41,275 nucleotides of DNA from Chthoniobacterales bacterium (GCA_039936335.1 JBDTIQ010000116.1:1-41275), one strand, 5' to 3'; shown: positions 457 through 40,627, numbered from the stretch's first letter. Numbers and translations: made by a program. Notes: generated from the letters alone by a model not told the origin.

Positions 457-2667
457 ATGGCTTTTGAAGACAACGAGTTGCTTTTCGGCGCCGACCCGGC
501 CCCGCGGATCGTTGCGGTCGAGCTGGGCGAGACGGGGACGGTCAAAGTCTATCGGCGGGAGAAGGATGGCGCGACCGCCTGCGAGATCGAGGAGTTCCAT
601 CCCTTCGTCTGGGCTGATAGCGACATTGCCGATCTCGGCCTGGCGAACGCGGAAAAGCTAAGCGGCGACCTGAAATACGGCTGGCTGGTGACGACAGATA
701 GCTGGAAAGAACTCATCGCGCTCCGCAACGGGTTGAAGAAAGCAGGTCGCAACTTTTTCGCGCTAAGTGACCCGGTCCAACACTACCTGACCCATACGGG
801 ACGGACGCTTTTCAAGAAGCTACCCTTCGACGAGCTGAAACGGATTCAGCTTGAAGTGTTGTCTTTCGCTGGCGGCGACCTCGAAGCCTCCACCGAAGAC
901 CATATTACCAGTATCGCGGTTTCCGATAACTCCGGTTGGGAGGAGCTGATCGAGGTAAACCCAGACGCGATCGAAGAGTCCGAGCATGCTGCGATCAAAC
1001 GTCTGACCGGTCTCATTAAGGAACGCGATCCAGACGTGATCGAAGGTCATAACCTCTTCAAGTTTGACCTGCCATTTCTGGTCGCCCGTGCCCGGAGGGC
1101 AAAGACGAAACTCGACTGGGGTCGAAGTGGCGGTTTCCTCCGCTCGCGTCCGTCGCGCCTCCAGATCGCGGAGAAGACGATCGATTACCCCAAGTTCACG
1201 ATCGACGGCCGCCATTTCGTCGACACGTTCCTGCTCGCCCAGTTCTACGACGTGGGCATGCGCACGCTGAGTGGTTTCGAGCGCAGCGATGTTGCCCAGC
1301 ATTTCGACCTAACGAACATAGCGTCTGTCTCACAGCTATCCGGCAAAGAGTTACAGCGGGCGTGGCTGGACGATCCGGAGCGCTATCGCGAGCGTGCGCT
1401 CTGCGCGGTGCGGGAAACGCGGGCCGTCGCCGACTTGCTTAGCCCCAGCTATTTCATCCAGGCGCGGATTTTCCCTTACAATTATCAGGACGTGATCGTG
1501 CGTGGAAACGCGACCAGGATTAACGCGCTTTTTCTTCGCGAATATTTCCGCCAACGCCAAAGCATTCCGGAGATGCCGATGGCGCGCGGGTTCGAAGGCG
1601 GCTACACCGACATCTTTTTCACCGGCGTGGCGCGGAACGTGTGGCATTGCGACGTCGCTTCGCTCTACCCATCGATCATGTTGCAGTTCGATTGCCTGCC
1701 GCTGAACGATCAGCTCCAGATCTTTCGACACTTACTGACTGACCTGCGGTCTTTTCGTCTGGAGGCGAAGGCGGACATGCGCGAAGCGAGGGACGAAGCC
1801 ACGCGGCGCTATTACCACGCGCTGCAAAATACCTTCAAAATCCTGATCAACAGCTTCTACGGCTATCTCGGTTTCGCGCAGGGAAGCTTTGCTGATTTCG
1901 AAGCCGCCGCGCGAGTCACTCAGATCGGGCGCGATCTCCTCAAACAGATGATCGCATGGCTGCAGGCACAGGGGGCACAAGTGATCGAAGTCGACACGGA
2001 CGGGATCTACTTTGTTCCACCTAACGACGCCAGCGTCGAAAACTTGCGGGATGGGCTGGCGAAAGAGTTGCCAGCAGGGATCGAAGTGGAATTCGACGAA
2101 CAATTCGAAGCCATGTTCAGCTATAAGGCGAAGAACTATGCCCTGCTCGACCAGGAAGGTGAAGTGACTCTCAAAGGCGGCGCCCTGAAGTCGCGCGGAT
2201 TAGAGAAGTTCCAGCGGGTTTTTCTCGAGGAAATGATCAAGCTGCTCATGCAGGAGAAGCCAGACGCGATCCAGGATTTACGCGATGACTTCGAGCGAAA
2301 GATCCGCGAGCGAGCCTGGCCAATCGAGATGCTGATGAAAACCGATACCCTGCAGGATTCGCTGGAGAAATATCGTCAGAAAATAGCAGGTTCAGCGCGG
2401 AATCGCGCCGCTGCCTATGAGTTGGCGCTAGCCAGTGGTCGCAACTATCGGCCGGGGGACCAGGTAAGCTACTACATCACGGGCACGACGAAGAAAGTGG
2501 CCGCTTACGAAAACGCCAAGCTGGTGCCGGATTTCAATCCGAGCGTGCGCGATGAGAATGTCGATTATTACGCGGCTAAGTTGGATGACTTGATGAAGAA
2601 ATTCGCCGACTTCACCAAAACGAAAGCAGCCGCGACAGATCCCGCGCAGGGAGACCTTCTTCTCTAA
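457..2667 (+). CDS. polB: Family B DNA polymerase (Pol II-like)
   Basis: 736-aa ORF. Exo motifs GDLEA and NLFKFDLPFL. Polymerase motif A DVASLYPSIM, motif B KILINSFYGYLG, motif C VIEVDTDGIYF. Confidence 0.9.
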   Translation: MAFEDNELLFGADPAPRIVAVELGETGTVKVYRREKDGATACEIEEFHPFVWADSDIADLGLANAEKLSGDLKYGWLVTTDSWKELIALRNGLKKAGRNFFALSDPVQHYLTHTGRTLFKKLPFDELKRIQLEVLSFAGGDLEASTEDHITSIAVSDNSGWEELIEVNPDAIEESEHAAIKRLTGLIKERDPDVIEGHNLFKFDLPFLVARARRAKTKLDWGRSGGFLRSRPSRLQIAEKTIDYPKFTIDGRHFVDTFLLAQFYDVGMRTLSGFERSDVAQHFDLTNIASVSQLSGKELQRAWLDDPERYRERALCAVRETRAVADLLSPSYFIQARIFPYNYQDVIVRGNATRINALFLREYFRQRQSIPEMPMARGFEGGYTDIFFTGVARNVWHCDVASLYPSIMLQFDCLPLNDQLQIFRHLLTDLRSFRLEAKADMREARDEATRRYYHALQNTFKILINSFYGYLGFAQGSFADFEAAARVTQIGRDLLKQMIAWLQAQGAQVIEVDTDGIYFVPPNDASVENLRDGLAKELPAGIEVEFDEQFEAMFSYKAKNYALLDQEGEVTLKGGALKSRGLEKFQRVFLEEMIKLLMQEKPDAIQDLRDDFERKIRERAWPIEMLMKTDTLQDSLEKYRQKIAGSARNRAAAYELALASGRNYRPGDQVSYYITGTTKKVAAYENAKLVPDFNPSVRDENVDYYAAKLDDLMKKFADFTKTKAAATDPAQGDLLL

Positions 2668-2779
2668 CCTGCGATGCTGGTGCGGCACGAGTAGCCGTTG
2701 GTTTCCTGCTTCTCATCGGACCGCCGCAGAAGGCGGAATGATCCACGACCGGCGCAATGGCCGTTCGATCAGTTATCGC

Positions 2780-3235
2780 TCATTTCTGCTTTTCCGAGTG
2801 CGCGACCTTTAAGAGTTTCACGTCTCTTGTCAGCAGTGGGGTCCCATCGATATCCAAGCCGGCGGTGCTGTCGGTCGCATCCCCGAAGTAGCGAAAAATC
2901 CGATCCGGCTTCTGCTTGCTCACGTAAAGGCCACCCGCGACCGCTTTGTTCTGACTGAAGAAGCTATGCAACCCATTCGTCGCCTGAAAATAATACCCGC
3001 GAGCATCCTCGCTCACGGGAATGAATTGTCCGGGCAAGATCCAGAACTCTCCATTCTCACTCCGGGTCAGGAAGGGATGATTCACGTGGATCGTGCGCAG
3101 CAGGACAAACTCTTCGATGTTTCTGCCCTTGAGGATGGCTGGGCCGTGGAGAGGCACGCGCGCCCGATCAGCGGAACTTCCGTAAGCCATAAGCAGACTG
3201 CAAAGTGCCGCTAATATCAGACGTCCTCGCCGCAT
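2780..3235 (-). CDS. Hypothetical secreted protein
   Basis: ORF 2780..3316. The likely start is ATG at 3235, giving the signal-peptide-like N-terminus MRRGRLILAALCSLLMAYGSSA. I recognise no family. Confidence 0.45.
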   Translation of the reverse strand: MRRGRLILAALCSLLMAYGSSADRARVPLHGPAILKGRNIEEFVLLRTIHVNHPFLTRSENGEFWILPGQFIPVSEDARGYYFQATNGLHSFFSQNKAVAGGLYVSKQKPDRIFRYFGDATDSTAGLDIDGTPLLTRDVKLLKVAHSEKQK

Positions 3236-3394
3236 TCGCAGCTGGGAAGAGTTTTGATGCATAAGCTCCATTCGTCGGAAGAGAATATCCTGCTTGACCG
3301 GCTGCCTGCAAATCATTCGTACTTCACCCCCAGACTAATCCCCGGCGGCGAGTAGCTTCTATACTCGTTGGGCTTTGTATCTCCTGATGATAGC

Positions 3395-5182
3395 TCACGT
3401 GCCGTTCTTGTTCTTCGCACGCGCGAGAAGGCTGCGAGCCTGGGTCACGAGCTTCACTTCCTCTGGAAGAAGCTTCGCGTTGGCCGAGGCGTCGAGGAAC
3501 TTCGTCGCTTCAAGGTTATGTCCAGCCGCCGCGAGAAAGATCCCGTAATAGGCCGCGACGGAGGGATCTTTCAGCTGCTCCGGTGTGAGGCTTTGCATGA
3601 TGTGGAGCGCGCCTTGGACGTCGCCGTTTTGATAAAGCCCGAAAGCGTAAGTGGACGCAAAGGCGGCGTTTTTCGGTTGCTCGCGATGCACGTAGGCCGC
3701 GAGGGCGCGCGCGCGAAATGGATCGGCGTGCAGCAGGAGCGAGATCTGCGCGAAGTTGTTTTTCACCAGCGGGTCGTCCGGCAGCACGTCGATGAGCCGC
3801 GTGAGGACACGGAACAGTCCCGCGGTATCGCGCTCGCCTGCGAAGTAGTTATAGAGGGCTTGGAGCGCCGCCGTTTGCGACTCGGGGATTTCCGCGAGCA
3901 ACCACAGGACGTCGACGCCTTTCGCCGGCCAGTGCCATTGGAAGGCGAGCTTCTGCAAAACGTTCAGCCGCTCGCTGTTGTTCTGGGCTCGGGAGACGGC
4001 TTCGGCCCACAATTTTTCAAAGCCATCGGGATCGCCGGTTTCCTTCGCGACCTTCGCCTGGAGCGCGAGCCGGAATGACTCGACGCCTTCCCACGAGCCG
4101 CGCTGCAGCATTGCCTTCAGCGCCGCCCAATCGCGCAGCGCTATGTAGGCGTCGGCCAGCGCAAACCGAAGCGAAACGCTGCCGAACATTTCCGGCGGGA
4201 GACGTTTGCTCCAGTCGATCGCGAGGAGCGCGAGGCCGTGGCTCGTCATCCAACTGATGAGTCGCGCCGCCTGCTCCGCGGACGTGGCCGATTTCGCTTC
4301 GGACCGGGTGAGCGCGTCGGTGAAAGCGGGATCGTTGAACTGGCGCAGAATCCCGAGCGCGAGGAGGCGGTCGGCCGCGGGCGCATCGGGGAGCGCGTCG
4401 AGCTCCTTCGCGAGTGCGAGCGCTTCGGAATCGTAACGGCGAGCGAGCGCGTCGTTCAGCAAAATGTGGATCGCATCGAGCTGCACCTTCTTGTTGCTCT
4501 TCAGGCGGGTGGCGGTGGCGCGGCCGGTGGCTCGCTCGACGGAATCGGCGGAGCGGAGCTGAAATTCCGCCAGCTCGAGCTCGTGTTTGGGATCGTTAGG
4601 CGCGAAGCGGACGGCGGCGCGCAGATGTTCGCCGGCGGCGGCGAGGTCATTTTTTGTGAGGGCCACGCGCGCGGCTGCGGCTTGGTATTCGGCATTGTTC
4701 CGTTGGGCGCTCGCGACCTGCGCGAGCGTCTCGGCGGCTATTTCTGGCTGGGAAAAACGGAGCGCCGTGTTTGCGAGCGACATGCGATCGGGAAACGAAG
4801 TCGGATCGATTGCGAGCGCGCGCCGCCGCCATTCGATCGCCTGGACGCTGTTCTGTTTCTCCGCGATATCGGCGAGAGTGCGGCAGGCGTCGATGCTCTT
4901 GTCGTCGAGGCTGTAGGCGCGTTGCGCAGCCATCGCGGCCCAGCGCAGATCGAGTTTATCGTAGGCGACGTGGGCCTGGTGCATGAGCTTGCGCTCCTGC
5001 CAGTGCACGTAAAGACGACGGCCACCCCAGCAAACGGCCACGAGCAGGACGAGCCCCAGAATGATGCCTAACGACAGGCGGATATAGACCCGCTCGGTCT
5101 TTTGCAGCGTGATTTCGCGTTCGTCAGTTGGGAGCGCCATGTCGAGTCTGCCGGGTCCGCGCCGGGTGGCGTCGCGGCGCAC
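3395..5182 (-). CDS. TPR-repeat protein with one N-terminal transmembrane helix
   Basis: 595-aa ORF with TM segment LSLGIILGLVLLVAVCW, followed by repeated Ala/Leu-rich TPR-like helices. An alternative start ATG lies at 5140 (MALPTDERE). It is divergent from the exosortase gene. Confidence 0.7.
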   Translation of the reverse strand: MRRDATRRGPGRLDMALPTDEREITLQKTERVYIRLSLGIILGLVLLVAVCWGGRRLYVHWQERKLMHQAHVAYDKLDLRWAAMAAQRAYSLDDKSIDACRTLADIAEKQNSVQAIEWRRRALAIDPTSFPDRMSLANTALRFSQPEIAAETLAQVASAQRNNAEYQAAAARVALTKNDLAAAGEHLRAAVRFAPNDPKHELELAEFQLRSADSVERATGRATATRLKSNKKVQLDAIHILLNDALARRYDSEALALAKELDALPDAPAADRLLALGILRQFNDPAFTDALTRSEAKSATSAEQAARLISWMTSHGLALLAIDWSKRLPPEMFGSVSLRFALADAYIALRDWAALKAMLQRGSWEGVESFRLALQAKVAKETGDPDGFEKLWAEAVSRAQNNSERLNVLQKLAFQWHWPAKGVDVLWLLAEIPESQTAALQALYNYFAGERDTAGLFRVLTRLIDVLPDDPLVKNNFAQISLLLHADPFRARALAAYVHREQPKNAAFASTYAFGLYQNGDVQGALHIMQSLTPEQLKDPSVAAYYGIFLAAAGHNLEATKFLDASANAKLLPEEVKLVTQARSLLARAKNKNGT

Positions 5183-5201: not shown

Positions 5202-6764
5202 ATGTCCCATTCCACCGCGGAAGCTCGCGCGCTCCCGTCGCCTGCGCTCGCCGGAGTGGGGTCGCTCGGGATTTGCGGGCTCGCTTTTGGGTTTCTTTGG
5301 CTGGAGATCATCCACCAGCTCGGGAGCGAGTGGTCGCTCAATCCGCAATACGGCTATGGTTGGACGGTGCCGTTTTTGGCCGCGTTTCTTCTCTGGCAAC
5401 GCTGGTCGGCGCGACCGGACAGCAGTGCGCCGGATTTTCCTGGCCTAACGATTTGCCTGACGGTTATCGCCGCGCTGATTTTATTTCCGGCGCGCCTCGT
5501 TGCGGTCGCAAATCCCGACTGGCGTTTGCTCGATTGGATCATGGCGCTGGCGGTCGTCGCGATCTCGTTAGGCGGAATCTACCTTACCGGCGGCGTGGGC
5601 TGGCTCCGGCATTTTGCTTTCCCGATTTTGTTCTTCCTCGTCGCGGTGCCGTGGCCGGTGCAGCTCGAGCAACTTGTCGTGCAACACCTGATGCGTGCCG
5701 ACGCCGCGATCACGATCGGCCTGCTTAACTTTATCGGCACGCTCGCGCTCCAGCACGGCAACGTGATCGAACTCAGCACCGGCCAGGTCGGGATCGACGA
5801 CGCCTGCACCGGTGTGCGTTCTCTCCAGGCGACGTTCATGGTCGCGCTGTTTCTTGGCGCCTTTTATCGCATGACGCCGCGGCGACGCGTGCTCCTTGTC
5901 GTGGCCGGCGCGTGTCTCGCGTTTGTCTGCAATATCGGGCGCACGTTTTTGCTTTGCGAGGTCGCGGCGAACGACGGGATCGCGGCGATCCAGCGTTGGC
6001 ACGATCCGGCCGGGTTCACGATTCTCGGGATCTGTCTTTTCGTGCTCTGGGGGATGAGCCTCTGGTTGCAGCCAAAGGCGGCGCCATCCCGCCGGAGAAT
6101 TGCGGCGCCATTTCACCTGCGCAGCTTCGGCTGGCCGCTCGCCTTGCTCGTTTGGCTTTGCCTGACGGAAAGCGTTGTCGCGTTTTGGTATGCGCCCAAA
6201 TCCGCGGAAACTTCCCAGCCGTGGTCGGTGAGCTGGCCGACGAGCGAACCCGGTTATCAAACGCAACCCATCGCGGCCGCGGCCGAGGAATTGTTGCGCT
6301 ACAACGAAGGCGGCGCGGCGACCTGGCGCTCGGCCGATGATCGGCCTTGGTTGATGTATTCCTTCCACTGGCTGCCGGGGCGAACCGCGGCGCTCTTCGT
6401 GAAAAATCATCGGCCGGACATCTGTCTGCCGGCGAGCGGCCTAACGATGCAGAAAGAGAGCGGTGTCCATCTCGTGCGGGCGAATGGCGTTAGTCTGCCG
6501 ATTCGCGCCTATCGCTTCGACGACAACGGCCGGCCGCTCCACATTTTCTACTGCTACTGGGATGGTCGCTCCAGTTACGAGAATGACGCCGCGGCCGCGG
6601 CCGAAGACTGGACGGCGCGCGGTCGTTTACGCTCCGCTTGGGAAGGCAAACGCGAACGCGACGCACGGATGTTTGAGCTCGCGGTTTGGGGTCACGAAAA
6701 TGACGCGGAAGCGAACGCTGCGCTGCAACGCGAGCTGGAGAAAATCGTCACACCGTCATCCTGA
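5202..6764 (+). CDS. Exosortase fused to a C-terminal EpsI-family domain
   Basis: Polytopic N-terminal half with exosortase-type catalytic motifs DDACTGVRSL (Cys), NIGRTFLL (Arg) and WHDPAGF (His). The soluble C-terminal ~200 aa resembles EpsI. The stop TGA at 6762-6764 lies inside a palindromic element arm. Confidence 0.8.
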   Translation: MSHSTAEARALPSPALAGVGSLGICGLAFGFLWLEIIHQLGSEWSLNPQYGYGWTVPFLAAFLLWQRWSARPDSSAPDFPGLTICLTVIAALILFPARLVAVANPDWRLLDWIMALAVVAISLGGIYLTGGVGWLRHFAFPILFFLVAVPWPVQLEQLVVQHLMRADAAITIGLLNFIGTLALQHGNVIELSTGQVGIDDACTGVRSLQATFMVALFLGAFYRMTPRRRVLLVVAGACLAFVCNIGRTFLLCEVAANDGIAAIQRWHDPAGFTILGICLFVLWGMSLWLQPKAAPSRRRIAAPFHLRSFGWPLALLVWLCLTESVVAFWYAPKSAETSQPWSVSWPTSEPGYQTQPIAAAAEELLRYNEGGAATWRSADDRPWLMYSFHWLPGRTAALFVKNHRPDICLPASGLTMQKESGVHLVRANGVSLPIRAYRFDDNGRPLHIFYCYWDGRSSYENDAAAAAEDWTARGRLRSAWEGKRERDARMFELAVWGHENDAEANAALQRELEKIVTPSS

Positions 6765-6904: not shown

Positions 6905-9900
6905 ATGCGGAGAGTTTGCGCTTTTCGCGCGAGGAAACGATTGTCGTCGGTGGCTTCCACCAACGGCAAGAAACCCTGCGAGACCGCGCCTCCGGACCCG
7001 CCTCAGGCGGGTTGCATCGCCATCCGCGGGGCGCGGCAGAACAATCTCAAGGGCTTCGATCTCGATCTCCCGCTGGGCGAATTAACCGTCGTCACTGGCC
7101 CGAGTGGGAGCGGTAAATCGTCGCTCGCCTTCGACACGATCTACGCGGAAGGCCAGCGCCGCTACGTCGAGACGTTTTCGCCTTACACACGGCAATTTCT
7201 CGACCGGATGGACAAGCCGCGGGTCGATGAAATTCGCGGTATCCCGCCCGCGATCGCGATCGCGCAATCGAACCCGGTGAAAAGCTCGCGCTCAACCGTC
7301 GGCACGATGACGGAGATCAACGACTACCTGAAACTGCTCATGCCGCGGGTGGCGCACGCCTTTTGTCCCAGCTGCGGCCGGGAGATTCGGCCGGAAAGCG
7401 CAAAGTCGATCGCGGATGAAATCTTCGCGAAATTCGGAACGCCTAACGCCATTTGTCATCCTGAGCGGAGTGGAGCGGAGCGGAACGGAGTCGAAGGACC
7501 TCACAAGCTTTCTGAGGACGTCGATAACCAAAGCGACGTCGAGCAACGCTTGCGGGGTCCTTCGACTGCGCTGCGCTCCGCTCGGGATGACAAGGAAAAG
7601 AGCGCTCCTCCTCAAACTGGCCTGATCACCTTTTGGATCACCGTCCCGCCGAAGACCGATCCCGCGGACTTCTTCGCCTTCCTCCAACAGCAAGGTTATC
7701 TGCGCATCTGGCTCGATGGCGAAGTCATCCGTGCCGACACCGACCTCAAAAACATCCGGCTCGGCGCGCGTGTCCAGGTCATCCAGGATCGCCTGACGAT
7801 CAACGAAGGATCGCGCGCGCGGCTCGTCGAATCGCTCGAGACTGCGCTCCGTTTCGGAAAAGATCGGATCAACTTCATCGACCTCGAAACGAAGGAGGCG
7901 CATCCATTTTCGACCGGCTGGCATTGCGCGCATTGCGATCTCGATATTCGCCCGCCGACGCCAGGTTTGTTCAGCTTTAACAATCCGTTAGGCGCGTGTC
8001 CGGAATGTCGCGGCTTCGGACGCACCATCGGCGTCGATTACAACCGCGCCATCCCGGATCGCTCCTACTCGATCGCTCAAGGCGCGGTCCGAGTTTTCCG
8101 CGGGCAGGAGATGGGCGAATCGCAAAAGGACCTGCTCCGCGCCTGCACCCGTGAGGAGATCGACGTCAATACGCCCTTCGAGGAATTGCCGCAGTGCGAT
8201 CAGGATTTCATCATCAATGGTGAGAAGGGCGTGGGCGAATACAGCGAGGAAGATTACGAAACCGATCGCTGGTATGGCGTGCGCGGATTCTTCAAATGGC
8301 TCGAGAGTAAGTCCTACAAAATGCACGTGCGCGTGCTCCTCAGCCGCTACCGCGCCTACACGAACTGCCCAAGCTGTCGCGGCGGACGTTTCCAGCCGGA
8401 GACGTTGAATTTTCGATTCGTCACTTCCTCTTCCAGGATGCCTGGAGAGCTGAGTTCCCGCGAAGCCGCGCCGGATGCTATTGCCTTCACGCTCCCGGAA
8501 TTTGCCGCGCTTCCGATTTCGGAAGCGCGCGATTTCCTAACTAACCTGACGCTTCCGCCTAACGATTCTGCTGCAGCCATGTTGTGCGCTGAGATCGTGA
8601 CGCGGCTCAATTATCTCTGCGAAGTCGGCGTCGGCTACCTCACGCTCGATCGCTCCACCCGCACCTTGAGCGGCGGCGAAGTGCAACGCGTTAACCTCAC
8701 CACTTGCCTCGGCGCCTCGCTCGTGAACACGCTTTTCGTGATGGACGAACCGAGCGTCGGCCTCCATCCGCGCGATGTCGGGAGACTCGTTAGGGTGATG
8801 CATAACCTGCGCGACAAAGGCAATACGTTGCTCGTCGTCGAGCACGAGGAAGCGATCATCCGCGCGGCGGATCATCTGCTCGATATTGGCCCCGGCCGCG
8901 GCGAGCAGGGGGGCGAGCTTGTCTTCCAAGGAACGCTGAACGAGATGCTGGGTAGCGCGCCCGTCCCGGGTGCTGGCGAAGGCGTCCCGCCTTCGCGAAC
9001 TTCCGAAAACACGAACGGTTCTCGCCGATCGAAACCGGATCGAAAAAGTTCGTTGCCGCGAGACGCGTCAACCAGCACGCGAGACGCGCGCGCTACCCCG
9101 GCATTCTCGCTCACCGCCGAATATCTATCCGGCCGTAAGAGCATCCCGATTCCGAAGGCACGCCGCGAATTCAAGCACACGCTCAAGATCAAAGGCGGAA
9201 GCGAACACAACCTCCAGAACCTCGACGTCGAGATTCCGTTAGGCATTTTCACTTGCGTGACCGGCGTTTCCGGTTCCGGAAAATCGACCCTCGTGCACGA
9301 CGTTCTCTACAAGAACCTCCTCCGAGAACGCGGCGAGCAGGGCGAGGAAGCCGGCGCCTGCAAGAGCGTGACCGGCGCGCATCGCGTCGGGCAGATTGTG
9401 ATGGTCGATCAATCGTCGCTCTCCCGCACCCCGCGCTCGACGCCGATTCTCTATCTCGGCGTTTACGACCGGGTGCGCGAGCTCTTCGCCGCGCTCCCGG
9501 AAGCGATGGCGCAGGGCCTGACGGCGAGCGCGTTTTCCTTCAACTCCGGGAGCGGCCGTTGCGAGCGTTGCGGCGGGACCGGCTTCGAAAAAGTAGAGAT
9601 GCAATTCCTGAGCGACCTCTACGTGCGCTGCGCCGAATGCGAGGGCAAACGCTTTCAGCCGCACGTGCTCCGGGTGAAGCTCGAAGGCCGCTCGATTCAC
9701 GACCTGCTCGAGCTGACGGTGAGCGAGGCGGTGGAATTTTTCGCGTCGTTAGGCGAAGCGGAGAAGCTGGCGCAACCTCTGGCGATCCTCGAGGAGGTCG
9801 GGCTCGGCTACGTGCGGCTCGGGCAGCCGCTGAACACGCTTTCCGGCGGCGAATCACAGCGGCTTAAGCTCGTTAGGCACCTGGCCGAGAGCGGTGCCGA

Positions 9901-13114: not shown

Positions 13115-13229
13115 GCGAAGCGCAGCGGAGTCGAAGGACCTCACAAGCGTCTGGCGACGTCGTTAGGCAAAACGGGCTCCGCACGACGCTTGCGAGATCC
13201 CGCACCGCGCTGCGCCGGTTCGGGATGAC
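13105..13229. repeat. Family-1 palindromic element, copy 3
   Basis: Same termini (GTCATCCTGAGCGAAGCGCAGCGGAGTCGAAGGACCTCACAAGC ... CGGGATGAC). Contains the uvrA stop codon at 13112-13114. Confidence 0.85.
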
Positions 13230-15468: not shown

Positions 15469-15496
15469 CTGAGAAAGCGACAGCCGGAGCCTAACG

Positions 15497-18071: not shown

Positions 18072-18090
18072 GCGCGAGACAAACAGCCAG

Positions 18091-18643: not shown

Positions 18644-18675
18644 GGCGCGGATGGTTTCCGATTCCGCGAGCCAGT

Positions 18676-23314: not shown

Positions 23315-23321
23315 CTCCCCG

Positions 23322-26580: not shown

Positions 26581-26621
26581 CAACTGTGATGGGCCCTCGT
26601 TTTTGGGCCAATGATATACGC

Positions 26622-30016: not shown

Positions 30017-30036
30017 CGAATCGGTCCGCACGACCT

Positions 30037-32721: not shown

Positions 32722-32751
32722 TCGTTAGGCATTTTAGTCGGAGAAGCAGCT

Positions 32752-33947: not shown

Positions 33948-34013
33948 AAAATTGCCTAACGAAACCTCCGTCCGCCGTTGCTTCTGCGCCTAACCGATCT
34001 ACTGTGGAGACCT

Positions 34014-35231
34014 GTGTCTTTCAACAACTTCGGGCTTTCCCAGGAAGTCGTGCGGGGAACCCAGGCGATGGGCTTTACGGAGCCTACGCCAATCCAGCTC
34101 CGCGCTTTTCCCATCGTTCTCGGCGGCAGAGATCTCATCGGGACCGCGCAAACCGGCACCGGTAAAACCGCCGCCTTCGCGCTGCCGATTCTCACCCTGC
34201 TGGCGCAGCACGGCGCGTTTCGTTGTTTAATCCTTGAGCCGACGCGCGAGCTCGCGGCGCAAGTCGAGACGGCTTTTCGCGATTACGGGCGCTACACGGA
34301 TCTGCGCGTCTCGGTCGTGCACGGTGGCGTCGGCTACGGCAAGCAAAAGGAAGAAGCCGCCGCGGGAACAGACATTGTCTGCGCGACGCCCGGGCGCTTG
34401 CTCGATCTGCTCGAGCAAGGTGCGATGAACTTTCGGAACGTGAACATTCTCGTGCTCGATGAAGTCGATCGGATGCTCGACATGGGATTCCTCCCCGACG
34501 TGCGCCGGATCGTCGAGCAGATTTCGACCGATCGGCAAACGCTCCTCTTCTCGGCCACTTTACCGCCGGAGATTGAGCGGCTCGCGGCATGGGTTTTACG
34601 CGATCCGGAAGTGGTGGAAATCGGAGCGCAACGTTCGCCGGCTGAAACGGTGACTCACGCCGTTTATCCCGTAGCTGCCGAGCAGAAATTCGACCTGCTC
34701 ATGGCGCTCCTCGAGCGCACCAACTACGACAGCGCGCTGATTTTCTCCCGCACGAAACACGGCGCCGATCGAATCGCGTCCCAGCTCAAGCAAGGCAAAC
34801 ACGCCGTCGCGGTTCTGCATTCCAATCGCACCCAGCGCGAGCGCGTCGAAGCGCTCGAAGGTTTCAAGAGCGGCAAATACGAAGTCATGGTCGCGACCGA
34901 TATCGCCGCGCGCGGGATCGACATTGCGGGGGTCACGCACGTCATCAACTACGACGTTCCGGAGCATCCGGAAGATTACGTGCACCGCATCGGTCGGACC
35001 GGCCGCGCGCAGAAGGTCGGCGACGCTTTCACTCTCATGAACGGCGAAGAGCTGCCGTCTCTCCAGGCGATCGAGCGCTTCATCGGGCAGAAAATTCCAC
35101 GGCTGAAACTCGATAATTTCCCCTACATCTACACCGTCCTCTTCGAGCCGGAATCGGCCAGCGGCGGCAAGCGCGCGATCGGCGGTGGCCGCACGCATCG
35201 GGGCTATTCCTTCGGCCGGCGGCGTCGTTAG
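34014..35231 (+). CDS. rhlE: DEAD-box ATP-dependent RNA helicase (RhlE-like)
   Basis: Q motif FTEPTPIQ, AQTGTGKT, PTRELA, DEVD (DEAD variant), SAT, HRIGRTGRA. I chose the GTG start at 34014, preceded by GGAGA at 34005-34009; the longest ORF starts at TTG 33978. Confidence 0.85.
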   Translation: MSFNNFGLSQEVVRGTQAMGFTEPTPIQLRAFPIVLGGRDLIGTAQTGTGKTAAFALPILTLLAQHGAFRCLILEPTRELAAQVETAFRDYGRYTDLRVSVVHGGVGYGKQKEEAAAGTDIVCATPGRLLDLLEQGAMNFRNVNILVLDEVDRMLDMGFLPDVRRIVEQISTDRQTLLFSATLPPEIERLAAWVLRDPEVVEIGAQRSPAETVTHAVYPVAAEQKFDLLMALLERTNYDSALIFSRTKHGADRIASQLKQGKHAVAVLHSNRTQRERVEALEGFKSGKYEVMVATDIAARGIDIAGVTHVINYDVPEHPEDYVHRIGRTGRAQKVGDAFTLMNGEELPSLQAIERFIGQKIPRLKLDNFPYIYTVLFEPESASGGKRAIGGGRTHRGYSFGRRRR

Positions 35232-35241
35232 GCCCTAACGA
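35225..35241. repeat. Perfect inverted pair of the abundant motif (TCGTTAGG-C-CCTAACGA) at the helicase stop codon
   Basis: 17-bp palindrome. The helicase TAG stop (35229-35231) lies inside its left half. Confidence 0.9.
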
Positions 35242-35381: not shown

Positions 35382-37452
35382 GCTTCGTCCAACGATCGAC
35401 CCAGTCGTTCACGGTTTTATACCAGAGCTCGCTGTTCTGCGGCTTCAGAACCCAGTGGCCTTCATCGGGAAAATAGAGCATCTCCGACGGCACGCCGAGG
35501 CGCTGGAGAGTCGTGAAGAGATCGAACCCCTGCGAAACATCGAGCCGGTAATCGAGCTGCCCGTGCACGACTAGCGTCGGCGTTTTAAAATTCTCCGCCG
35601 AGAGCGCGGGTGACCACTTGCGATACATCTCCCGGTTTTTCCAAGGCGGCCCGCCGAATTCCTTCTCTGGAAACCAGAGTTCTTCCGTCGTGCCGTAAGC
35701 GGATTCGGTGTTGAAAATGCCGTCGTGCGTCACGAGACATTTGAAGCGGTCGGTGTGCCCGAGAATCCAATCGATCATGTAACCGCCGTAGCTCGCGCCG
35801 AGCGCGGCTTCGCGATTTTTGTCGATGAACGGGAAGGCCTTCTCTGCGTAATCGAGCCCTTGCATGAGATCGTGAAACGGCGTGCCGCCCCATTGGTTGA
35901 TCACGCCTTCGGTAAACTTCTGGCCATAACCGGTCGAGCCGCGCGGATTCACCATCACCACGACGTAGCCGTTCGCGGCAAAGAGTTCCGGGTTCCAGCG
36001 GAACGACCAATCATCGCCCCACGCGCCCTCCGGCCCGCCGTGGATAAGGAATTTCACGGGATACTTTTTGCTCGCGTCGAAATCGGGCGGCTTTACGAGA
36101 AAGCCCTGAATCTCCACGCCGTCGGAAGCCTTGAACTGGAACGGCTCGAGTGGCTGCAGCGCCACTTGCGCGAGCGTTGCGTCATTCACGCGCGTGACGG
36201 CGACGGGCTCGCTCTTTGCTGACACGTCGAGGCGCCAGATTTCGTTAGGCGCCTTGATCGAGTTGCGGCTGAAGTAGAGAAACTTCCCAGCCGGTCCGAA
36301 GACGAGGTCGTCCGCGTGCAGGCGCGTGAGTTCGTTAGGCTGCTTTGCGTTCAGAGGCAGCTGATAGATCGGCGCCTCGCCGTGATCTTCCGCGCTGAAG
36401 TAGATCGACTGCGAATCGTTCGCCCAAACAAAGCTGCCGACCCAGCGATCGAAATCCTGCGTTGCGATCCGAATCTTTCCCGAGCTCCGATCGTAGATCG
36501 CGAGGGTAAAGCGATCGCTTTCGTAACCGGCTCGCGCCTGCGAGAGCCACGCGATCGACTTGCTATCCGGAGAGTAGCGTGGCGTCGAGTCGCTGCCGGG
36601 ACTGGTCGAAATTTTCTTCGGCGCACTGCCAGCGAGCGGGACGAGAAAGATGTCGTTGTTCGTGCTCGTCGCGCCGACTTTGTCGGTGTTGCAGGTGTAG
36701 GCGAGTTGCTGGCCGTCGGGTGAAATGGCATACATGTCCGAGCCGCCTAACGAGAAAGGCGGAACATCGTGATCGCCCGGGGTGAGGTCGCGCGGTGTTG
36801 CGGGCGACACGCCGGCCTCTACGCCGACGACAAAGAGATGGCTGCGCTTGAAATCCGTGTACTCCGTCCAATGCCGGAAAAGCAGGTGCTTGAAGATCTT
36901 CGCCTTCACCTTGCTCTTCTTCAGTTCCTCGTCGCGCTGCTGGTTGCAGGCGTCGTCTTTGCAGTCAGGATAAACGCGCGAGATGAAGACGATATTCTTC
37001 CCATCGGGCGACCAGATCGCGCCGTCCGCGCCGGTTGAGAGCGAGGTCACTTGGTGCGCCGTCCCATTTAATTTCCCGGCGGCCGGATCGAAGTCGACCA
37101 TCCAGACCTGAGTGGGATCAGTCGCTTTCGAAGTGAAGATCAATCGCTGGCCGTCAGGTGAAAATCGTGGGCGTTCCTCCTCGTTAGGCGAATCGTTCAG
37201 GCGGCGCGCCTCGCCACCTTCGGCCGGGACGATCCAGAGATGTGATTTCCGCGTGTTTTCCGCCAGCCTTACCTCCGTCGCCGAGAAGACGACCCATTTG
37301 CCGTCAGGCGACGGGATTGGTTCGCCGAGACGTTTCAGTTTCATCATCGTCTCGAAGTCGAACGGCTTTTTGCCGGCGCCTTGTTCGTTAGGCGCAGCGG
37401 AGAGTGGCAACGCGGAAGCGATGAGCGCGAGGGTCATAAGGAGTTTTTTCAT
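35377..37452 (-). CDS. S9-family serine peptidase (beta-propeller plus prolyl-oligopeptidase/DPP-type alpha/beta hydrolase domain)
   Basis: Signal peptide, PDG-type propeller blades, and nucleophile elbow LGASYGGYM. The catalytic region ends ...YFPDEGHWV. The TAG stop lies in the terminus of a palindromic element. Confidence 0.85.
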   Translation of the reverse strand: MKKLLMTLALIASALPLSAAPNEQGAGKKPFDFETMMKLKRLGEPIPSPDGKWVVFSATEVRLAENTRKSHLWIVPAEGGEARRLNDSPNEEERPRFSPDGQRLIFTSKATDPTQVWMVDFDPAAGKLNGTAHQVTSLSTGADGAIWSPDGKNIVFISRVYPDCKDDACNQQRDEELKKSKVKAKIFKHLLFRHWTEYTDFKRSHLFVVGVEAGVSPATPRDLTPGDHDVPPFSLGGSDMYAISPDGQQLAYTCNTDKVGATSTNNDIFLVPLAGSAPKKISTSPGSDSTPRYSPDSKSIAWLSQARAGYESDRFTLAIYDRSSGKIRIATQDFDRWVGSFVWANDSQSIYFSAEDHGEAPIYQLPLNAKQPNELTRLHADDLVFGPAGKFLYFSRNSIKAPNEIWRLDVSAKSEPVAVTRVNDATLAQVALQPLEPFQFKASDGVEIQGFLVKPPDFDASKKYPVKFLIHGGPEGAWGDDWSFRWNPELFAANGYVVVMVNPRGSTGYGQKFTEGVINQWGGTPFHDLMQGLDYAEKAFPFIDKNREAALGASYGGYMIDWILGHTDRFKCLVTHDGIFNTESAYGTTEELWFPEKEFGGPPWKNREMYRKWSPALSAENFKTPTLVVHGQLDYRLDVSQGFDLFTTLQRLGVPSEMLYFPDEGHWVLKPQNSELWYKTVNDWVDRWTKP

Positions 37453-37468: not shown

Positions 37469-39295
37469 CTAATCAGCGAATAGCTCGACCGCGTCGATTA
37501 ATGAATCCGCGATCGATTCCTTCGAGATCCAGCGCTGGATTCCGGCCGCCGGATCGTCTTTCGGCCCGGGCGCAACAAGGAAAACCTCCGTGCCGTTCAG
37601 CCGCAGTTTGGCCAGAATCTCGAAGACGGAGGTGTCGCCGCTGATTACTGCATAATTCTCTGAAAGGATCTCCGCCAACGTCGTCTCGGCCCGCGGCCGA
37701 TGGATCGCCTGCAAGGCCATGCTCATCGTGATGACACCCGTGATTTTGTTCTCCTCCATCACCGCGAAACAAGCGTCCGTCGGATACGACGGCAGCGTGA
37801 TCGCGAGCTCCGGCAGTGTCATCGCGGCCGGTAGCCTAACGACTCCCGCATGCGTCAACTCGCGCGCCGGTTTCATGTATTGAATGTTGGCCTGCATCGC
37901 GTTCGGCATCCGATGTCCGCGGCGCGCGAGCTTGAGCGTGTAGATGCTCTCGTTCGAAAGCATCTTCCGCACGCCATAGGCGATCGCGACCGTGATCGTC
38001 ATCGGCACGACCACGCCGTAATCGAGCGTCATCTCAAAAATCATGACGATCGCGGTAATGGCGGCGCCGGTTGTGCCGCCGACGGTGCCGGCCATTCCGA
38101 CAACCGCGAAGGCCGCTGGGCTGATTTCCATCCCCGGAAAAATCGCCTGAAGCAGAATGCCATAGGCGCTGCCTAACGTGGCCCCGAGGAAGAGTGCCGG
38201 CGAAAAGACGCCGCCCGAAGCGCCCGAGCCAAGCGTGAGCGAGGTCGCGAAAAGTTTGAGCGCGAAAAGCAAGAGCAGGAACCAAAAGGAGTGCATCGTT
38301 CCGGAGAGAACCTGTTGAATGGTCGCATAACCGACACCCTCAATGTGATACGCACCCGTCTCGCGCATCAGCAGGTAGATCACAATCCCGAGAAGCAACA
38401 TGCCGCTCGTGTGGCGCAGGTAGGGATTACGAATCCGCGCCTCGAAAAAGTCCTCGAAAGCGTAGATCGAGCGAATGTAGAGCACCGAGACGAGACCGAT
38501 GAGCAGACCCAGTCCGACATACGCGAGGAGCAGAAGCGGATGGGTGAGGTGGAAATAATCCATCCTTAAATCTGGGATGGCGAAGGCCGGGTTCGGCCCA
38601 AAAAAGTAGCGCCCGACATAGCTCGCGCTCGCCGTCGAGATCACGACTGGGACGAGCGTCCAGACGCTGATCTCGTGCAGCAAAAGCTCCGCGGCGAAAA
38701 GCACGCCACCGATCGGCGTATTGAAGGTCGCGGCGATGCCCGCACCGGCGCCGGCGGCGATCAAGGTGGTGCGTTGCCAAGCCGGGATGCGCAGCCATTG
38801 ACCCACGCTCGAGCCAAAGGCCGCGCCGATCTGAATGATCGGTCCTTCGCGCCCAACCGAGCCGCCGCTGCCGATCGAGAGCGCGGACGCGAGCGACTTA
38901 ATAACCGCCACAACCGGCCGAATCACGCTCTTGTTGTAATAGATCGCGTCCATCACTTCCGGCACGCCGTGCCCGCGCGCTTCCGGCGCGAAAGTCTGGA
39001 CCAGCCAGGTCACGCCGATCGCGCCGAGCACCGGGACGAAGATGATGAGCGCGCCCCACGGACTCGGCGGGGTGTGGACATTCGACGCGTAAAAGAACGA
39101 AAATTTTCCGAGAAAAAAGAAGTTGTGGAAACCAGCGATCATCCCGCGGAAGACGACCGCGCCGAGACCGCCGACGAGGCCGATCACGACTGCAAGCAAC
39201 CAGAACAGGAGCGGCTTGAGCGGAACTTTTTTGCGCACGCGCGAACCGGTCGGTCCGCGGCCGGTGGGCGAAATTTCCGCCGCCTGCTCAACCAC
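37469..39295 (-). CDS. ClC-family voltage-gated chloride channel/antiporter with C-terminal CBS pair
   Basis: Selectivity motifs GSGGSVGREGP, GVLFAAE and GGVFSPALF, with a C-terminal CBS-like region. Only 16 bp separate it from the downstream S9 peptidase gene. Confidence 0.85.
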   Translation of the reverse strand: MVEQAAEISPTGRGPTGSRVRKKVPLKPLLFWLLAVVIGLVGGLGAVVFRGMIAGFHNFFFLGKFSFFYASNVHTPPSPWGALIIFVPVLGAIGVTWLVQTFAPEARGHGVPEVMDAIYYNKSVIRPVVAVIKSLASALSIGSGGSVGREGPIIQIGAAFGSSVGQWLRIPAWQRTTLIAAGAGAGIAATFNTPIGGVLFAAELLLHEISVWTLVPVVISTASASYVGRYFFGPNPAFAIPDLRMDYFHLTHPLLLLAYVGLGLLIGLVSVLYIRSIYAFEDFFEARIRNPYLRHTSGMLLLGIVIYLLMRETGAYHIEGVGYATIQQVLSGTMHSFWFLLLLFALKLFATSLTLGSGASGGVFSPALFLGATLGSAYGILLQAIFPGMEISPAAFAVVGMAGTVGGTTGAAITAIVMIFEMTLDYGVVVPMTITVAIAYGVRKMLSNESIYTLKLARRGHRMPNAMQANIQYMKPARELTHAGVVRLPAAMTLPELAITLPSYPTDACFAVMEENKITGVITMSMALQAIHRPRAETTLAEILSENYAVISGDTSVFEILAKLRLNGTEVFLVAPGPKDDPAAGIQRWISKESIADSLIDAVELFAD

Positions 39296-39375
39296 GGCGG
39301 GAAATTTCCATCGCCGAAAATCGGCCGCTGCGGGAGAAGCGCAACCGAATCGGTGGATTGACTCCAGAGCGCGCG

Positions 39376-40482
39376 ATGCACGAGACTCGCACGATGGAAT
39401 GCCCGATGAACTCCGAGCGCGTGGCGCAATACTACCCCGATTATCTCGGGCTCAAGGGACTGCTCGAATTGCAAAAACCCCTCAGCTTGCGCGAGGGGAA
39501 GCTGATCGCGCACGATGAGATGCTCTTCATCATCATCCACCAGGCCTACGAGCTTTGGTTCAAGCAAATCCTGCACGAGGTCACCGCCTGCAAGGAAGTC
39601 ATGAGCAAACCGGAAGCCGATGACAACGGAGCCGATATGAACCTTGTGGTGCATCGGCTCGATCGCGTCGTCGAAATCTGGAAGCTGCTCAACCACCAGG
39701 TCGACGTTCTCGAGACCATGACGCCGCTCGATTTTCTTGAGTTCCGCGAGCTGCTCCACGGCGCCTCGGGTTTTCAGAGCCGGCAATTCCGCCAGATCGA
39801 GGCGTCGTTAGGCTTGAAGGTCGAGAGCCGGTTTCGGCCCGACTATTACAAGCACACGCGCTTCGGCGGCTTCAACGAAGCGGACATGGCGGAGATCACC
39901 GCGTTTGAAGAACAGGAGACGCTCCTCGGGTTGGTCGAGAAATGGCTCGAACGGATGCCGTTTTTCGGTGCGGAGTTCTGGCGCGATTGGGAGGAAGCGC
40001 CGGCCGATGCCAGCCAAAGTGAATACGCGCCTTTCTGGACTCGCTACCGTGGCCTTTACGAGCGGAGCCTCTCCGAGCGCGACGAGAAAGCCGTTCTGCT
40101 CGACCAGTTCGACGACATCTTCTTCCGCACCGGCTGGGGCGCGTTCCGGCCCGGCGCCCTGCGCGCCGCGCTCTTCATCATGCTCTATCGCGACGAGCCG
40201 ATCTTCCGTCTTCCGTTCGCGCTCCTGAACTCGCTCATCGAGATCGACGAACACCTGGGCAACTTCCGCTATCGGCACCTGCAAATGGTCCGGCGCATGA
40301 TCGGCTCACGCGTTGGCACCGGCGGCAGCAGCGGTCAGGAATACCTGCAGGGCGCGGTCAATAAGAATTATATCTTCAAAGAGCTGACCGGCATCACCAC
40401 TTACCTGATCGAGCGCTGCCATCTGCCCACGCTCCCGCCACGGCTCCGGCACGCTCTGCGCTTTAGCTTTTCTGGTCGTTAG
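39376..40482 (+). CDS. kynA: Tryptophan 2,3-dioxygenase
   Basis: YLGLKGLLELQKPLS...HDEMLFIIIHQAYELWFKQILHEV and the C-terminal GSRVGTGGSSGQEYL motif. Start choice is uncertain (TTG 39358; ATG 39376, 39394, 39406). Confidence 0.85.
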   Translation: MHETRTMECPMNSERVAQYYPDYLGLKGLLELQKPLSLREGKLIAHDEMLFIIIHQAYELWFKQILHEVTACKEVMSKPEADDNGADMNLVVHRLDRVVEIWKLLNHQVDVLETMTPLDFLEFRELLHGASGFQSRQFRQIEASLGLKVESRFRPDYYKHTRFGGFNEADMAEITAFEEQETLLGLVEKWLERMPFFGAEFWRDWEEAPADASQSEYAPFWTRYRGLYERSLSERDEKAVLLDQFDDIFFRTGWGAFRPGALRAALFIMLYRDEPIFRLPFALLNSLIEIDEHLGNFRYRHLQMVRRMIGSRVGTGGSSGQEYLQGAVNKNYIFKELTGITTYLIERCHLPTLPPRLRHALRFSFSGR

Positions 40483-40627
40483 GCCGCCATTCCTGATTGC
40501 CGAACCCCCGAAAGCGGTGGAACCAAAAAACATTGACTGTTTTCTTCGATTGTGAGCAATCTCGCTTTCGTCGCGGATTTAACATTAGGTAAAAATCTGA
40601 CGACACGAACCTCAAAGACCTCATAAA

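Follow-up and report, generated by a model that had tools for sequence, protein, structure and literature searches.

A hyper-abundant nonamer in Chthoniobacterales, with a core also enriched in Gemmatimonadota, as a candidate DNA-uptake signal

Why should one short word return about every 700 bases along an ordinary bacterial chromosome? The question is raised by a stretch of 41,275 bp from a Chthoniobacterales bacterium (GCA_039936335.1, JBDTIQ010000116.1:1-41275), referred to as the window, in which an initial annotation had pointed to the nonamer GCCTAACGA as a candidate DNA-uptake or self-recognition signal. We conclude that GCCTAACGA is a signature word written at the level of DNA, and that its copies are actively generated and kept up throughout the chromosome. 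As for its role, we tentatively favour an uptake signal similar to the uptake signal sequences (USS) of Pasteurellaceae and the DNA uptake sequences (DUS) of Neisseriaceae, whose determinant would have moved between phyla, and we regard this as possible rather than probable. Hyper-abundant genomic words are a known phenomenon; new are the sequence, the phylum and a core shared between unrelated phyla. Our literature searches found no earlier description of GCCTAACGA as a genomic word, in agreement with the initial annotation, and nothing relevant on words of this abundance, on competence or on uptake sequences for Verrucomicrobia, Chthoniobacterales or Udaeobacter.

The core of the word, CCTAACG/CGTTAGG, is present 58 times in the window, 29 times on each strand, and recounting returned exactly the number, orientations and positions that had been reported. 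The copies make up 1.26% of the DNA. The core extends to CCTAACGA in 53 of the 58 cases, as counted before, and to GCCTAACG in 47, but the full GCCTAACGA was recounted at 42 copies and not at the 46 originally claimed. The GC content of the window is 60.6%, within the 60-65% that had been assumed. Dinucleotide shuffles (n=100) gave an expectation of 2.3 cores and 0.18 nonamers, with none of the 100 near the observed counts, and Markov-0 to Markov-3 models predicted 0.2-0.65 copies of GCCTAACGA in the window. The observed to expected ratio of GCCTAACGA is above 100, and the word ranks first by frequency among both the 8-mers and the 9-mers of the window.

Sites with at most one mismatch to GCCTAACGA number 74 in the window against 8 expected. 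The variants previously noticed near 15101, 21842 and 28025 are present and all read TGTTAGGC. Single-mismatch variants are rare at positions 3, 6 and 7 and commonest at positions 1, 9, 5 and 8. The sequence logo of the window copies reads G(47/58)-CCTAACG-A(53/58), so that CCTAACG is the invariant core and positions 1 and 9 are softer. The positions flanking the word carry at most 0.2 bit each and the word is therefore not a fragment of a longer repeat, as had been proposed from unconserved flanks. Rfam, tRNA and tandem-repeat scans of the window returned nothing related to it. The word is not a palindrome, since it differs from its own reverse complement, and its orientation is balanced (29/29) while the cumulative GC skew climbs steadily through the window, which suggests that the window lies in one replichore. 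The spacing of copies is suggestive of a distribution more even than random, the coefficient of variation (CV) being below 1 in 13 of 14 loci, which are orthologous and so not independent.

The copies lie mostly within genes. On our home-made gene map, which is based on simple codon bias and spans 87% of the window, 49 of the 58 cores (84%) are inside coding sequences (CDS), four supply stop codons and five are intergenic. Sense and antisense placements are roughly equal (27 and 22), and all four stop-free frames are used: P-N-[D/E] (17 copies) and x-L-T (10) in sense, S-L-G (13) and x-V-R (9) in antisense. The two unused frames read TAA and TAG. The word imposes rare codons: of those in the window genes, 13 of 47 TTA, 10 of 36 CTA, 9 of 32 AGG and 17 of 80 CCT fall inside its copies, which for TTA, CTA and AGG together comes to about 28%. 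The use of four frames together with the imposed rare codons places the constraint on DNA and not on protein, as the initial annotation had argued from one gene. This gene, at 6905-13114 (+), is an open reading frame of 2069 amino acids that resembles two fused UvrA-like ABC ATPase units, and the four readings given for it are correct (P-N-D at 8558, S-L-T at 10384, S-L-G at 9746 and L-V-R at 9870). All 58 copies are given below in window coordinates, as perfect GCCTAACGA or as variants of it.

1307..1315 (+): variant ACCTAACGA; CDS 457-2667(+), sense
2019..2027 (+): variant ACCTAACGA; CDS 457-2667(+), sense
4593..4601 (-): perfect GCCTAACGA; CDS 3395-5182(-), sense
5066..5074 (+): perfect GCCTAACGA; CDS 3395-5182(-), antisense
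5443..5451 (+): perfect GCCTAACGA; CDS 5202-6764(+), sense
5565..5573 (-): perfect GCCTAACGA; CDS 5202-6764(+), antisense
6439..6447 (+): perfect GCCTAACGA; CDS 5202-6764(+), sense
7441..7449 (+): variant GCCTAACGC; CDS 6905-13114(+), sense
7985..7993 (-): variant GCCTAACGG; CDS 6905-13114(+), antisense, over conserved NPLGA
8557..8565 (+): perfect GCCTAACGA; CDS 6905-13114(+), sense, P-N-D
8787..8795 (-): variant CCCTAACGA; CDS 6905-13114(+), antisense
9236..9244 (-): variant GCCTAACGG; CDS 6905-13114(+), antisense
9746..9754 (-): perfect GCCTAACGA; CDS 6905-13114(+), antisense, SLG against QIG in outgroups
9870..9878 (-): perfect GCCTAACGA; CDS 6905-13114(+), antisense, L-V-R
9975..9983 (-): perfect GCCTAACGA; CDS 6905-13114(+), antisense
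10383..10391 (+): perfect GCCTAACGA; CDS 6905-13114(+), sense, SLT against SLA/DVK elsewhere
11885..11893 (-): perfect GCCTAACGA; CDS 6905-13114(+), antisense, kept in 13/13 clade loci
12929..12937 (-): perfect GCCTAACGA; CDS 6905-13114(+), antisense, GSLGG against GAEGG/GADGG in outgroups
13160..13168 (-): perfect GCCTAACGA; intergenic, 46 nt past the stop of the UvrA-like gene
14058..14066 (+): perfect GCCTAACGA; CDS 13490-14449(+), sense
15489..15497 (+): perfect GCCTAACGA; intergenic, its final base the A of the ATG of CDS 15497-15919
15711..15719 (-): perfect GCCTAACGA; CDS 15497-15919(+), antisense
16134..16142 (+): perfect GCCTAACGA; CDS 15916-16917(+), sense
16954..16962 (+): perfect GCCTAACGA; CDS 16914-18071(+), sense
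17561..17569 (+): variant GCCTAACGG; CDS 16914-18071(+), sense
17581..17589 (+): variant CCCTAACGA; CDS 16914-18071(+), sense
18065..18073 (-): perfect GCCTAACGA; provides stop TAG of CDS 16914-18071(+)
18208..18216 (-): perfect GCCTAACGA; CDS 18108-18680(-), sense
18457..18465 (-): perfect GCCTAACGA; CDS 18108-18680(-), sense
18945..18953 (-): variant CCCTAACGA; CDS 18676-19752(-), sense
19256..19264 (-): variant CCCTAACGA; CDS 18676-19752(-), sense
19518..19526 (+): variant CCCTAACGA; CDS 18676-19752(-), antisense
20068..20076 (+): perfect GCCTAACGA; CDS 19814-20494(-), antisense
20300..20308 (+): perfect GCCTAACGA; CDS 19814-20494(-), antisense
20880..20888 (+): perfect GCCTAACGA; CDS 20497-21687(+), sense
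22751..22759 (-): variant ACCTAACGA; CDS 21781-23202(+), antisense
24010..24018 (+): variant CCCTAACGA; CDS 23280-25061(+), sense
24716..24724 (+): perfect GCCTAACGA; CDS 23280-25061(+), sense
25292..25300 (-): perfect GCCTAACGA; CDS 25064-26449(+), antisense
25782..25790 (-): perfect GCCTAACGA; CDS 25064-26449(+), antisense
26174..26182 (-): perfect GCCTAACGA; CDS 25064-26449(+), antisense
26732..26740 (+): perfect GCCTAACGA; CDS 26517-27287(+), sense
27242..27250 (+): perfect GCCTAACGA; CDS 26517-27287(+), sense
30011..30019 (+): variant CCCTAACGA; provides stop TAA of CDS 29210-30016(+)
32722..32730 (-): perfect GCCTAACGA; intergenic, directly after the rpoA stop
33266..33274 (+): perfect GCCTAACGA; CDS 32752-33297(+), sense
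33954..33962 (+): perfect GCCTAACGA; intergenic
35225..35233 (-): perfect GCCTAACGA; provides stop TAG of CDS 33978-35231(+), left arm of the sole tight inverted pair
35233..35241 (+): variant CCCTAACGA; intergenic, right arm of the inverted pair
36242..36250 (-): perfect GCCTAACGA; CDS 35377-37452(-), sense
36332..36340 (-): perfect GCCTAACGA; CDS 35377-37452(-), sense
36745..36753 (+): perfect GCCTAACGA; CDS 35377-37452(-), antisense
37181..37189 (-): perfect GCCTAACGA; CDS 35377-37452(-), sense
37385..37393 (-): perfect GCCTAACGA; CDS 35377-37452(-), sense
37834..37842 (+): perfect GCCTAACGA; CDS 37469-39295(-), antisense
38171..38179 (+): variant GCCTAACGT; CDS 37469-39295(-), antisense
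39805..39813 (-): perfect GCCTAACGA; CDS 39358-40482(+), antisense
40476..40484 (-): perfect GCCTAACGA; provides stop TAG of CDS 39358-40482(+)

The pair at 35225/35233 is the only tight inverted pair in the window, and palindromic pairs with a spacer of 3-12 bp were not found in it. The inverted pair behind a gene, previously offered as a likeness to Neisseria, is a single case and forms no pattern. A terminator role for inverted pairs was ruled out, as the pairs lack T-tails and terminator-like sites in the window do not exceed the shuffle expectation. The copy at 15489 overlaps the start of an ExbD/TolR-like gene (15489-15499, GCCTAACGATG).

To follow the word beyond the window, we compared one syntenic locus across Chthoniobacterales, together with short metagenome contigs, relying for taxonomy on submitters' names and composition. 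Searching with the UvrA-like protein recovered 80 loci from species-representative genomes, all from Chthoniobacterales or other Verrucomicrobiota and mostly from soil metagenome-assembled genomes (MAGs), the best match being 85% identical; the length of the double UvrA-like frame is kept across at least 80 such genomes. High densities of 0.6-2.5 cores per kb are reached in the 13 loci whose UvrA is at least 77% identical; the word is intermediate in a few, and near zero in about 60 other relatives with the same genes and a similar GC content. In a neighbour-joining tree of this one protein, a rough guide only, the dense loci form one monophyletic clade, whose sister group has 0-0.54 cores per kb. 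A de novo k-mer scan of every locus placed the word at the top in each dense locus and found nothing comparable elsewhere. The clade sample contains 296 perfect copies of GCCTAACGA in 322 kb. Segments shared between loci have 1.45 copies per kb and unshared segments 0.94, although 'unshared' here mostly reflects the boundaries of the loci and not accessory DNA.

One member of the sister group (L006) has 14 copies with the extended consensus GCCTAACGAGt, which may be a dialect at positions 10-11. In a sister clade (L013, L014 and L018) a different word around GTCGATC (ATGTCGATCTT) is enriched, with about 1.5 cores per kb, and a further locus (L011) holds both words at intermediate density. We rejected GTCGATC as an equivalent dialect because it is weakly defined, with weak flanks, strand-biased (61:39) and only about 10-fold enriched. 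Another locus (L033, 187-3734) carries GGGTAGGG as four inverted pairs about 100 bp apart, which resemble repetitive extragenic palindromes (REP) or miniature inverted-repeat transposable elements (MITE) and are unrelated to the main word.

Alignment of orthologues, suggested in the initial annotation as a check, showed that the word is preserved. Synteny with the window extends over about 20 kb in close relatives, whose nucleotide identity to it is 75-83%, and in four of them (L001, L012, L032 and L024) the nonamer is fully kept at 65-77% of sites, whereas all 9-mers in the same alignments are fully kept at 17-25%. The word is thus conserved 3-4 times better than ordinary 9-mers at orthologous sites. 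In the motif-poor outgroups L005, L006 and L011 only 0-1 of 8-11 sites are kept, with GC-rich synonymous codons instead. Some copies in the UvrA-like gene, on the ancient peptides PLG and LVR, are built through codon choice alone. Others are clade-specific amino acid replacements, e.g. GSLGG where all outgroups have GAEGG or GADGG, and SLG in place of QIG.

The union of orthologous sites in the clade has a U-shaped frequency spectrum, with a conserved core and many lineage-specific sites. The densest genome, L024 (2.5 per kb), has private copies in conserved, well-aligned contexts, where QG-TLN-EM was overwritten as QG-SLG-EM and another conserved peptide as -SL-. Between the window and its nearest relative L001 the discordant sites differ by 1-2 bases, which looks like ordinary decay. 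The gains in L024 and the decay of this latter type indicate that the word is both created and lost, with a strong net push to creation. Gained sites differ from the non-carrier consensus by a mean of 3.5 of 9 bases and their flanks by 2.0 of 9; with long branches stepwise change is possible, and the idea that new copies arise as single multi-base events was not upheld.

The balance of orientation was confirmed on independent material. Scanning metagenomes for an inverted pair of nonamers yielded 24 non-redundant motif-rich contigs (139 kb) which, after removal of the selecting pairs, contain 60 forward and 65 reverse copies (0.9 per kb). Their orientation is unrelated to the local GC skew (r = -0.19), and the inverted pairs of these contigs have no T-tails. 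The absence of strand skew claimed for the window thus holds in both samples. A tblastx comparison of the metagenome contigs with the reference loci gave no usable orthologues. The motif-rich contigs split into three GC groups, of which the contigs at GC 0.55 group with Udaeobacter-like Chthoniobacterales by tetranucleotide usage only.

The high-GC contigs led outside the phylum. One of them (L376, GC 0.65), with 13 cores in 14 kb, encodes an Omp85 protein whose named homologues are all from Gemmatimonadota; the 90% cluster of one homologue includes Gemmatimonadetes bacterium SCN 70-22 as well as MAGs of Gemmatimonadaceae. The remaining high-GC contigs fall with Gemmatimonadota references at a tetranucleotide correlation of r = 0.92-0.96, by composition only. 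We then fetched syntenic Gemmatimonadaceae loci by protein homology alone, blind to the word, and compared GCCTAACG with shuffles:

L427: GC 0.64; GCCTAACG 8 observed, 0.26 expected
L424: GC 0.71; GCCTAACG 8 observed, 0.33 expected
L429 (Omp85 59% identical): GC 0.69; GCCTAACG 5 observed, 0.32 expected

In these three loci GCCTAACG is first or tied first among over-represented 8-mers, and a fourth (L428) is weakly enriched, with 3 cores in 12 kb. The Gemmatimonadota loci have balanced orientation, several sites common to species, and A or C at position 9. The copies in L424, where one gene spans 10001-11728, are at 348, 2113, 2355, 4708, 7985, 16287, 19385 and 21374. The word contains CTAA/TTAG and with it a stop codon on both strands: at 19385-19392 a single copy supplies the TAA of a tyrosyl-tRNA synthetase gene and the TAG of a convergent aminotransferase gene, and at 2113-2120 a copy provides the TAG of a purine DNA glycosylase gene.

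These loci show that the word is shared with a second, unrelated phylum. In our sequence-level tests (a subclade of Chthoniobacterales with edge dialects, excess orthologous conservation, amino acid replacements that fit the word, density, and accumulation in a phage) the word behaved as a signal of the DUS/USS type. A simple species-specific self-recognition signal did not predict the core in Gemmatimonadota, and its presence there gives more weight to the alternative that the initial annotation had also named, a HIP1-like or protein-binding word, in this case imposed by a transferable system.

One high-GC contig with a Gemmatimonadota-like composition (L361, 6895-13996, with L417 and L418) carries a GH94 and glucoamylase-family gene pair. 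The glucoamylase is 84% identical to a protein of a Ca. Udaeobacter MAG and 79% identical to Rhizobium proteins, and it is a candidate for recent cross-phylum gene transfer, probably horizontal. With such matches it was ambiguous as a placement marker for the high-GC contigs and was rejected, the placement being resolved by Omp85.

The word is also present in resident phage DNA. An IMG/VR contig (L085), from a phage of temperate type, encodes a tailed-phage head module (terminase, portal, head protease and major head protein) and has 12 cores in 12.1 kb, six per strand, with a tetranucleotide usage close to that of the window (r = 0.98). This element also turns up, as L422, in the bin of a Chthoniobacterales MAG at NCBI. 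Its density of 1.0-1.2 per kb matches the host, whereas a relative (L423, GC 0.57) whose terminase is 72% identical to that of L422 has 0.10 per kb. At the copies within the terminase gene of L422 the sequence of L423 is unrelated, e.g. KF-VR-PD against KF-IL-PD. The pattern comes from this one phage pair; when viral relatives of its terminase were sought, L085 alone came back, and viral scans for paired copies gave mostly chance matches, with L085 alone truly motif-rich. In Pasteurellaceae, temperate phages accumulate the host USS to host-like frequency and lytic or recently arrived phages are without it (PMC6776037). The word may serve to assign phages to hosts.

Two viral contigs (L159, 1393-1500, and L102, 11094-11170) contain tandem arrays of 3-4 palindromes CGTTAGG-AWWWWT-CCTAACG, each with two half-sites. 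The array of L159 has a ParB-like gene (1999-2985) about 500 bp downstream and resembles a centromere or operator. These were the only two arrays in 2.9 million viral contigs searched with the word, both contigs are motif-poor outside the array, and coincidence is therefore likely; we set the arrays aside as a clue to the word.

The window itself is ordinary core chromosome. Besides the UvrA-like gene it encodes a family B DNA polymerase, Lgt, TolQ/TolR/TonB-like and TolB-like proteins, an ATP-dependent DNA ligase, an NtrB/NtrC-like pair, phosphoglucomutase, ScpB, RpoA, ribosomal protein L17, a DEAD-box helicase, an S9 peptidase, a ClC channel and a tryptophan dioxygenase. No competence genes, including a ComP/ComN-type receptor, were found among the window genes; no DNA methyltransferase, Vsr-like gene or candidate binding protein was found in the window or the syntenic loci; and Rfam and tRNA scans of the window found no RNA genes. 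Exact look-ups of two of the encoded proteins matched no record. Tandem repeats with a period of 18-24 nt at 16223-16387 lie in the TonB-like gene, probably in a linker region. Repeats with periods of 14 and 33 nt at 23153-23312 run from the end of the NtrC-like gene into the start of a glycosyltransferase-like gene, the gap between the two genes being 23203-23279.

How could such a word come to fill a chromosome? If it is an uptake signal, a natural-transformation DNA receptor would bind it, and fragments that carry it would be taken up and recombined more often than fragments that do not. Mutations that create or improve a copy would spread by molecular drive, perhaps with help from selection, and the genome would become saturated at about one copy per kb in all places where its proteins allow it. 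The enrichment of the core in Gemmatimonadaceae would then mean that the specificity determinant moved horizontally between the phyla, or that both share one DNA-exchange pool. The length and asymmetry of the word, its density of about one per kb, the invariant core with softer edges, the use of frames, the cost in amino acids, the positional conservation and the phage pattern would all fit such a signal.

Several points weigh against it. Uptake, receptor and competence are here read from the sequence of loci alone, and natural transformation of these uncultured lineages is unreported in the literature that we searched. The core in two phyla requires the extra assumption that a receptor was transferred horizontally, and we know of no precedent for one identical core in unrelated phyla, known uptake sequences being lineage-specific. 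In conserved codons some newly gained copies changed 4-6 of 9 bases together, which would be hard to reach stepwise if partial matches bring no uptake advantage. Tight inverted pairs are rare and without T-tails and 84% of the copies are in genes, while about half of the known DNA uptake enhancing sequences (DUES) are in terminators. Finally, the cyanobacterial word HIP1 passes the same tests of abundance and conservation and is not an uptake-specificity word (PMC5861425).

This last point leads to a different explanation, in which the word is imposed inside the cell as the site of a sequence-specific protein with a horizontally mobile gene. That protein might for example be a methyltransferase (orphan or type IIG/III-like) coupled to repair, a factor of recombination or repair, or one that maintains the chromosome, and in lineages that acquired it biased repair or selection would drive the site into all resident DNA, prophages included. 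Although somewhat doubtful when taken alone, such a HIP1-like system is almost as likely as an uptake signal, and the sequence by itself would not separate the two. It is consistent with the patchy occurrence of the core within both Chthoniobacterales and Gemmatimonadaceae, as mobile sequence-specific enzymes typically spread in this way, with phage DNA resident in the clade at host density, with copies that arose as clustered changes of 4-6 bases within conserved sequence, and with the somewhat even spacing (CV below 1 in most of the non-independent loci). HIP1 itself is just as hyper-abundant, is conserved in excess in all frames and is spaced non-randomly (PMC5861425). However, our word is asymmetric and HIP1 is a palindrome, no gene for a methyltransferase, Vsr-like or binding protein lies in the window or syntenic loci, and the soft edges that drift between lineages suit a binding preference better than a fixed enzyme specificity. 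Moreover, 8-9 contiguous bases are long for a methyltransferase site, and the bias of very-short-patch repair gives modest enrichment, not one above 100-fold.

The word could also mark self DNA for a RecBCD/AddAB-type or other end-processing nuclease that stops at it and switches to repair, as at Chi sites; a dense set of sites would protect self DNA and expose foreign DNA. The short, asymmetric, lineage-specific form tolerated in coding DNA agrees with this, resident phage would gain from a word that shields it from the host nuclease, and the repair-rich neighbourhood (UvrA-like protein, family B polymerase and ATP-dependent ligase) is circumstantial support. Nevertheless we consider it improbable, because known Chi sites are co-oriented with replication and ours have no strand skew (29/29 and 60/65) or relation to GC skew, because more than 100-fold enrichment at about 1.4 copies per kb is far above any known Chi, and because overwriting conserved amino acids for further copies would be unexpected at such density. 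Equally improbable to us is a half-site for a nucleoid, partition or occlusion protein (ParB/Noc-like or other) that coats or organises the chromosome. The mildly regular spacing in host loci and the two viral arrays, one near a ParB-like gene, would speak for it, but those arrays surfaced through a search with the word itself, host copies are single half-sites with no spaced pairs and one tight pair, and known ParB, Noc, SlmA and MatP sites number tens per genome, not thousands. A word without function, i.e. a fragment of a REP or MITE, a by-product of protein motifs or codon usage, or an assembly or adapter artefact, is favoured by nothing but the general plausibility of repeats, and we give it practically no credence. 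These origins are excluded by the unconserved flanks, the placement in ordinary housekeeping genes on either strand and in four frames, the use of rare codons, the orthologous copies kept in over 13 MAGs of independent assembly and in contigs of many studies at JGI, ENA and NCBI, and the absence of the word from most relatives with the same genes and similar GC.

Both an uptake signal and a HIP1-like system would allow a broader proposal, that a transferable word-imposing system exists in soil bacteria, in which one determinant, be it a receptor for uptake or a writer or reader inside the cell, imposes the same 8-9-mer in Verrucomicrobiota (Chthoniobacterales) and Gemmatimonadota at 0.2-2.5 per kb. 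We offer this as a conjecture that is possible but rather unlikely. If it is true, a transferable system has rewritten conserved proteins and resident phages, and the word may define a DNA-exchange community across phyla and not a species-level self tag. In about 40 years, uptake tags have become known from two proteobacterial families only, and apart from them HIP1, with its function still unresolved, is to our knowledge the one word of similar abundance. Selective natural transformation, or another genome-wide kind of self-marking, would be hinted at for the first time outside those groups by a third, unrelated word, here from soil Verrucomicrobia that are abundant but uncultured, and the core in Gemmatimonadota raises the question whether the determinant of a word can cross phyla and then remodel genomes. 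In practice, the word could be used as a lineage or host barcode for contig binning and phage-host assignment, and it could be added to DNA constructs when trying to transform these intractable bacteria.

Compared with known systems, the word resembles Chi sites (RecBCD/AddAB) in being short, asymmetric, taxon-specific, over-represented and tolerated in genes. Chi sites are, however, strand-skewed with replication and few-fold enriched, while the word is balanced and enriched more than 100-fold, and the strong replication-linked strand bias of Chi and of the FtsK orienting polar sequences (KOPS) was not found. Nor was the longer and mostly intergenic unit of REP and MITE elements, given flanks of at most 0.2 bit and 84% of copies in CDS. 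HIP1 (GCGATCGC) of cyanobacteria comes closer: it is 15- to 300-fold enriched, up to about one copy per gene, is better conserved than control words in all frames, has non-random spacing and an unresolved function, and its abundance is not explained by codon usage or protein motifs (PMC5861425). It is a phylum-wide palindrome associated with the methyltransferases DmtA and DmtC, whereas our word has no such symmetry, is confined to one clade within its order and occurs in more than one phylum, and a methyltransferase link is seen for HIP1 only.

Known DUES are 9-10 nt long and occupy up to about 2% of a genome (bioRxiv 10.1101/2025.10.24.684340), and recent surveys still confine uptake sequences to Neisseriaceae and Pasteurellaceae (bioRxiv 10.1101/2025.10.24.684340; PMC13020248). 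Their trait of having about half of the copies, and over 90% of those in inverted repeats, in terminators was not found here, with 49 of 58 in CDS and one tight pair. The match to DUS and USS drawn in the initial annotation stands for density, orientation and coding placement, and for terminator pairs it comes down to one case; orthologous conservation and the phage pattern also agree with it. With the DUS of Neisseriaceae (GCCGTCTGAA and its dialects, receptor ComP) the word shares hyper-abundance, strand balance, an invariant core and variable dialect edges; an enrichment in shared DNA is only suggestive for the word, as the density contrast reflects locus boundaries. Many DUS are inverted terminator pairs, unlike the word with its one tight pair in 41 kb and no T-tails. 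The USS of Pasteurellaceae (Hin-USS AAGTGCGGT and Apl-USS) differ in their unrelated sequence, their phylum and their AT-rich flanking segments, which the word does not have, and the core of the word is identical in a second, unrelated phylum. In other respects they are much alike. Both are asymmetric, 9 bp long, strand-equal and present about once per kb, mostly as single copies inside genes in tolerant frames, with positions kept in related species and amino acids changed to fit. USS also have a similar ratio of variants to perfect copies and a position-graded constraint. The likeness extends to the enrichment of single-mismatch variants, to clade dialects and to temperate phages that reach the level of their host (PMC6776037; bioRxiv 10.1101/2025.10.24.684340).

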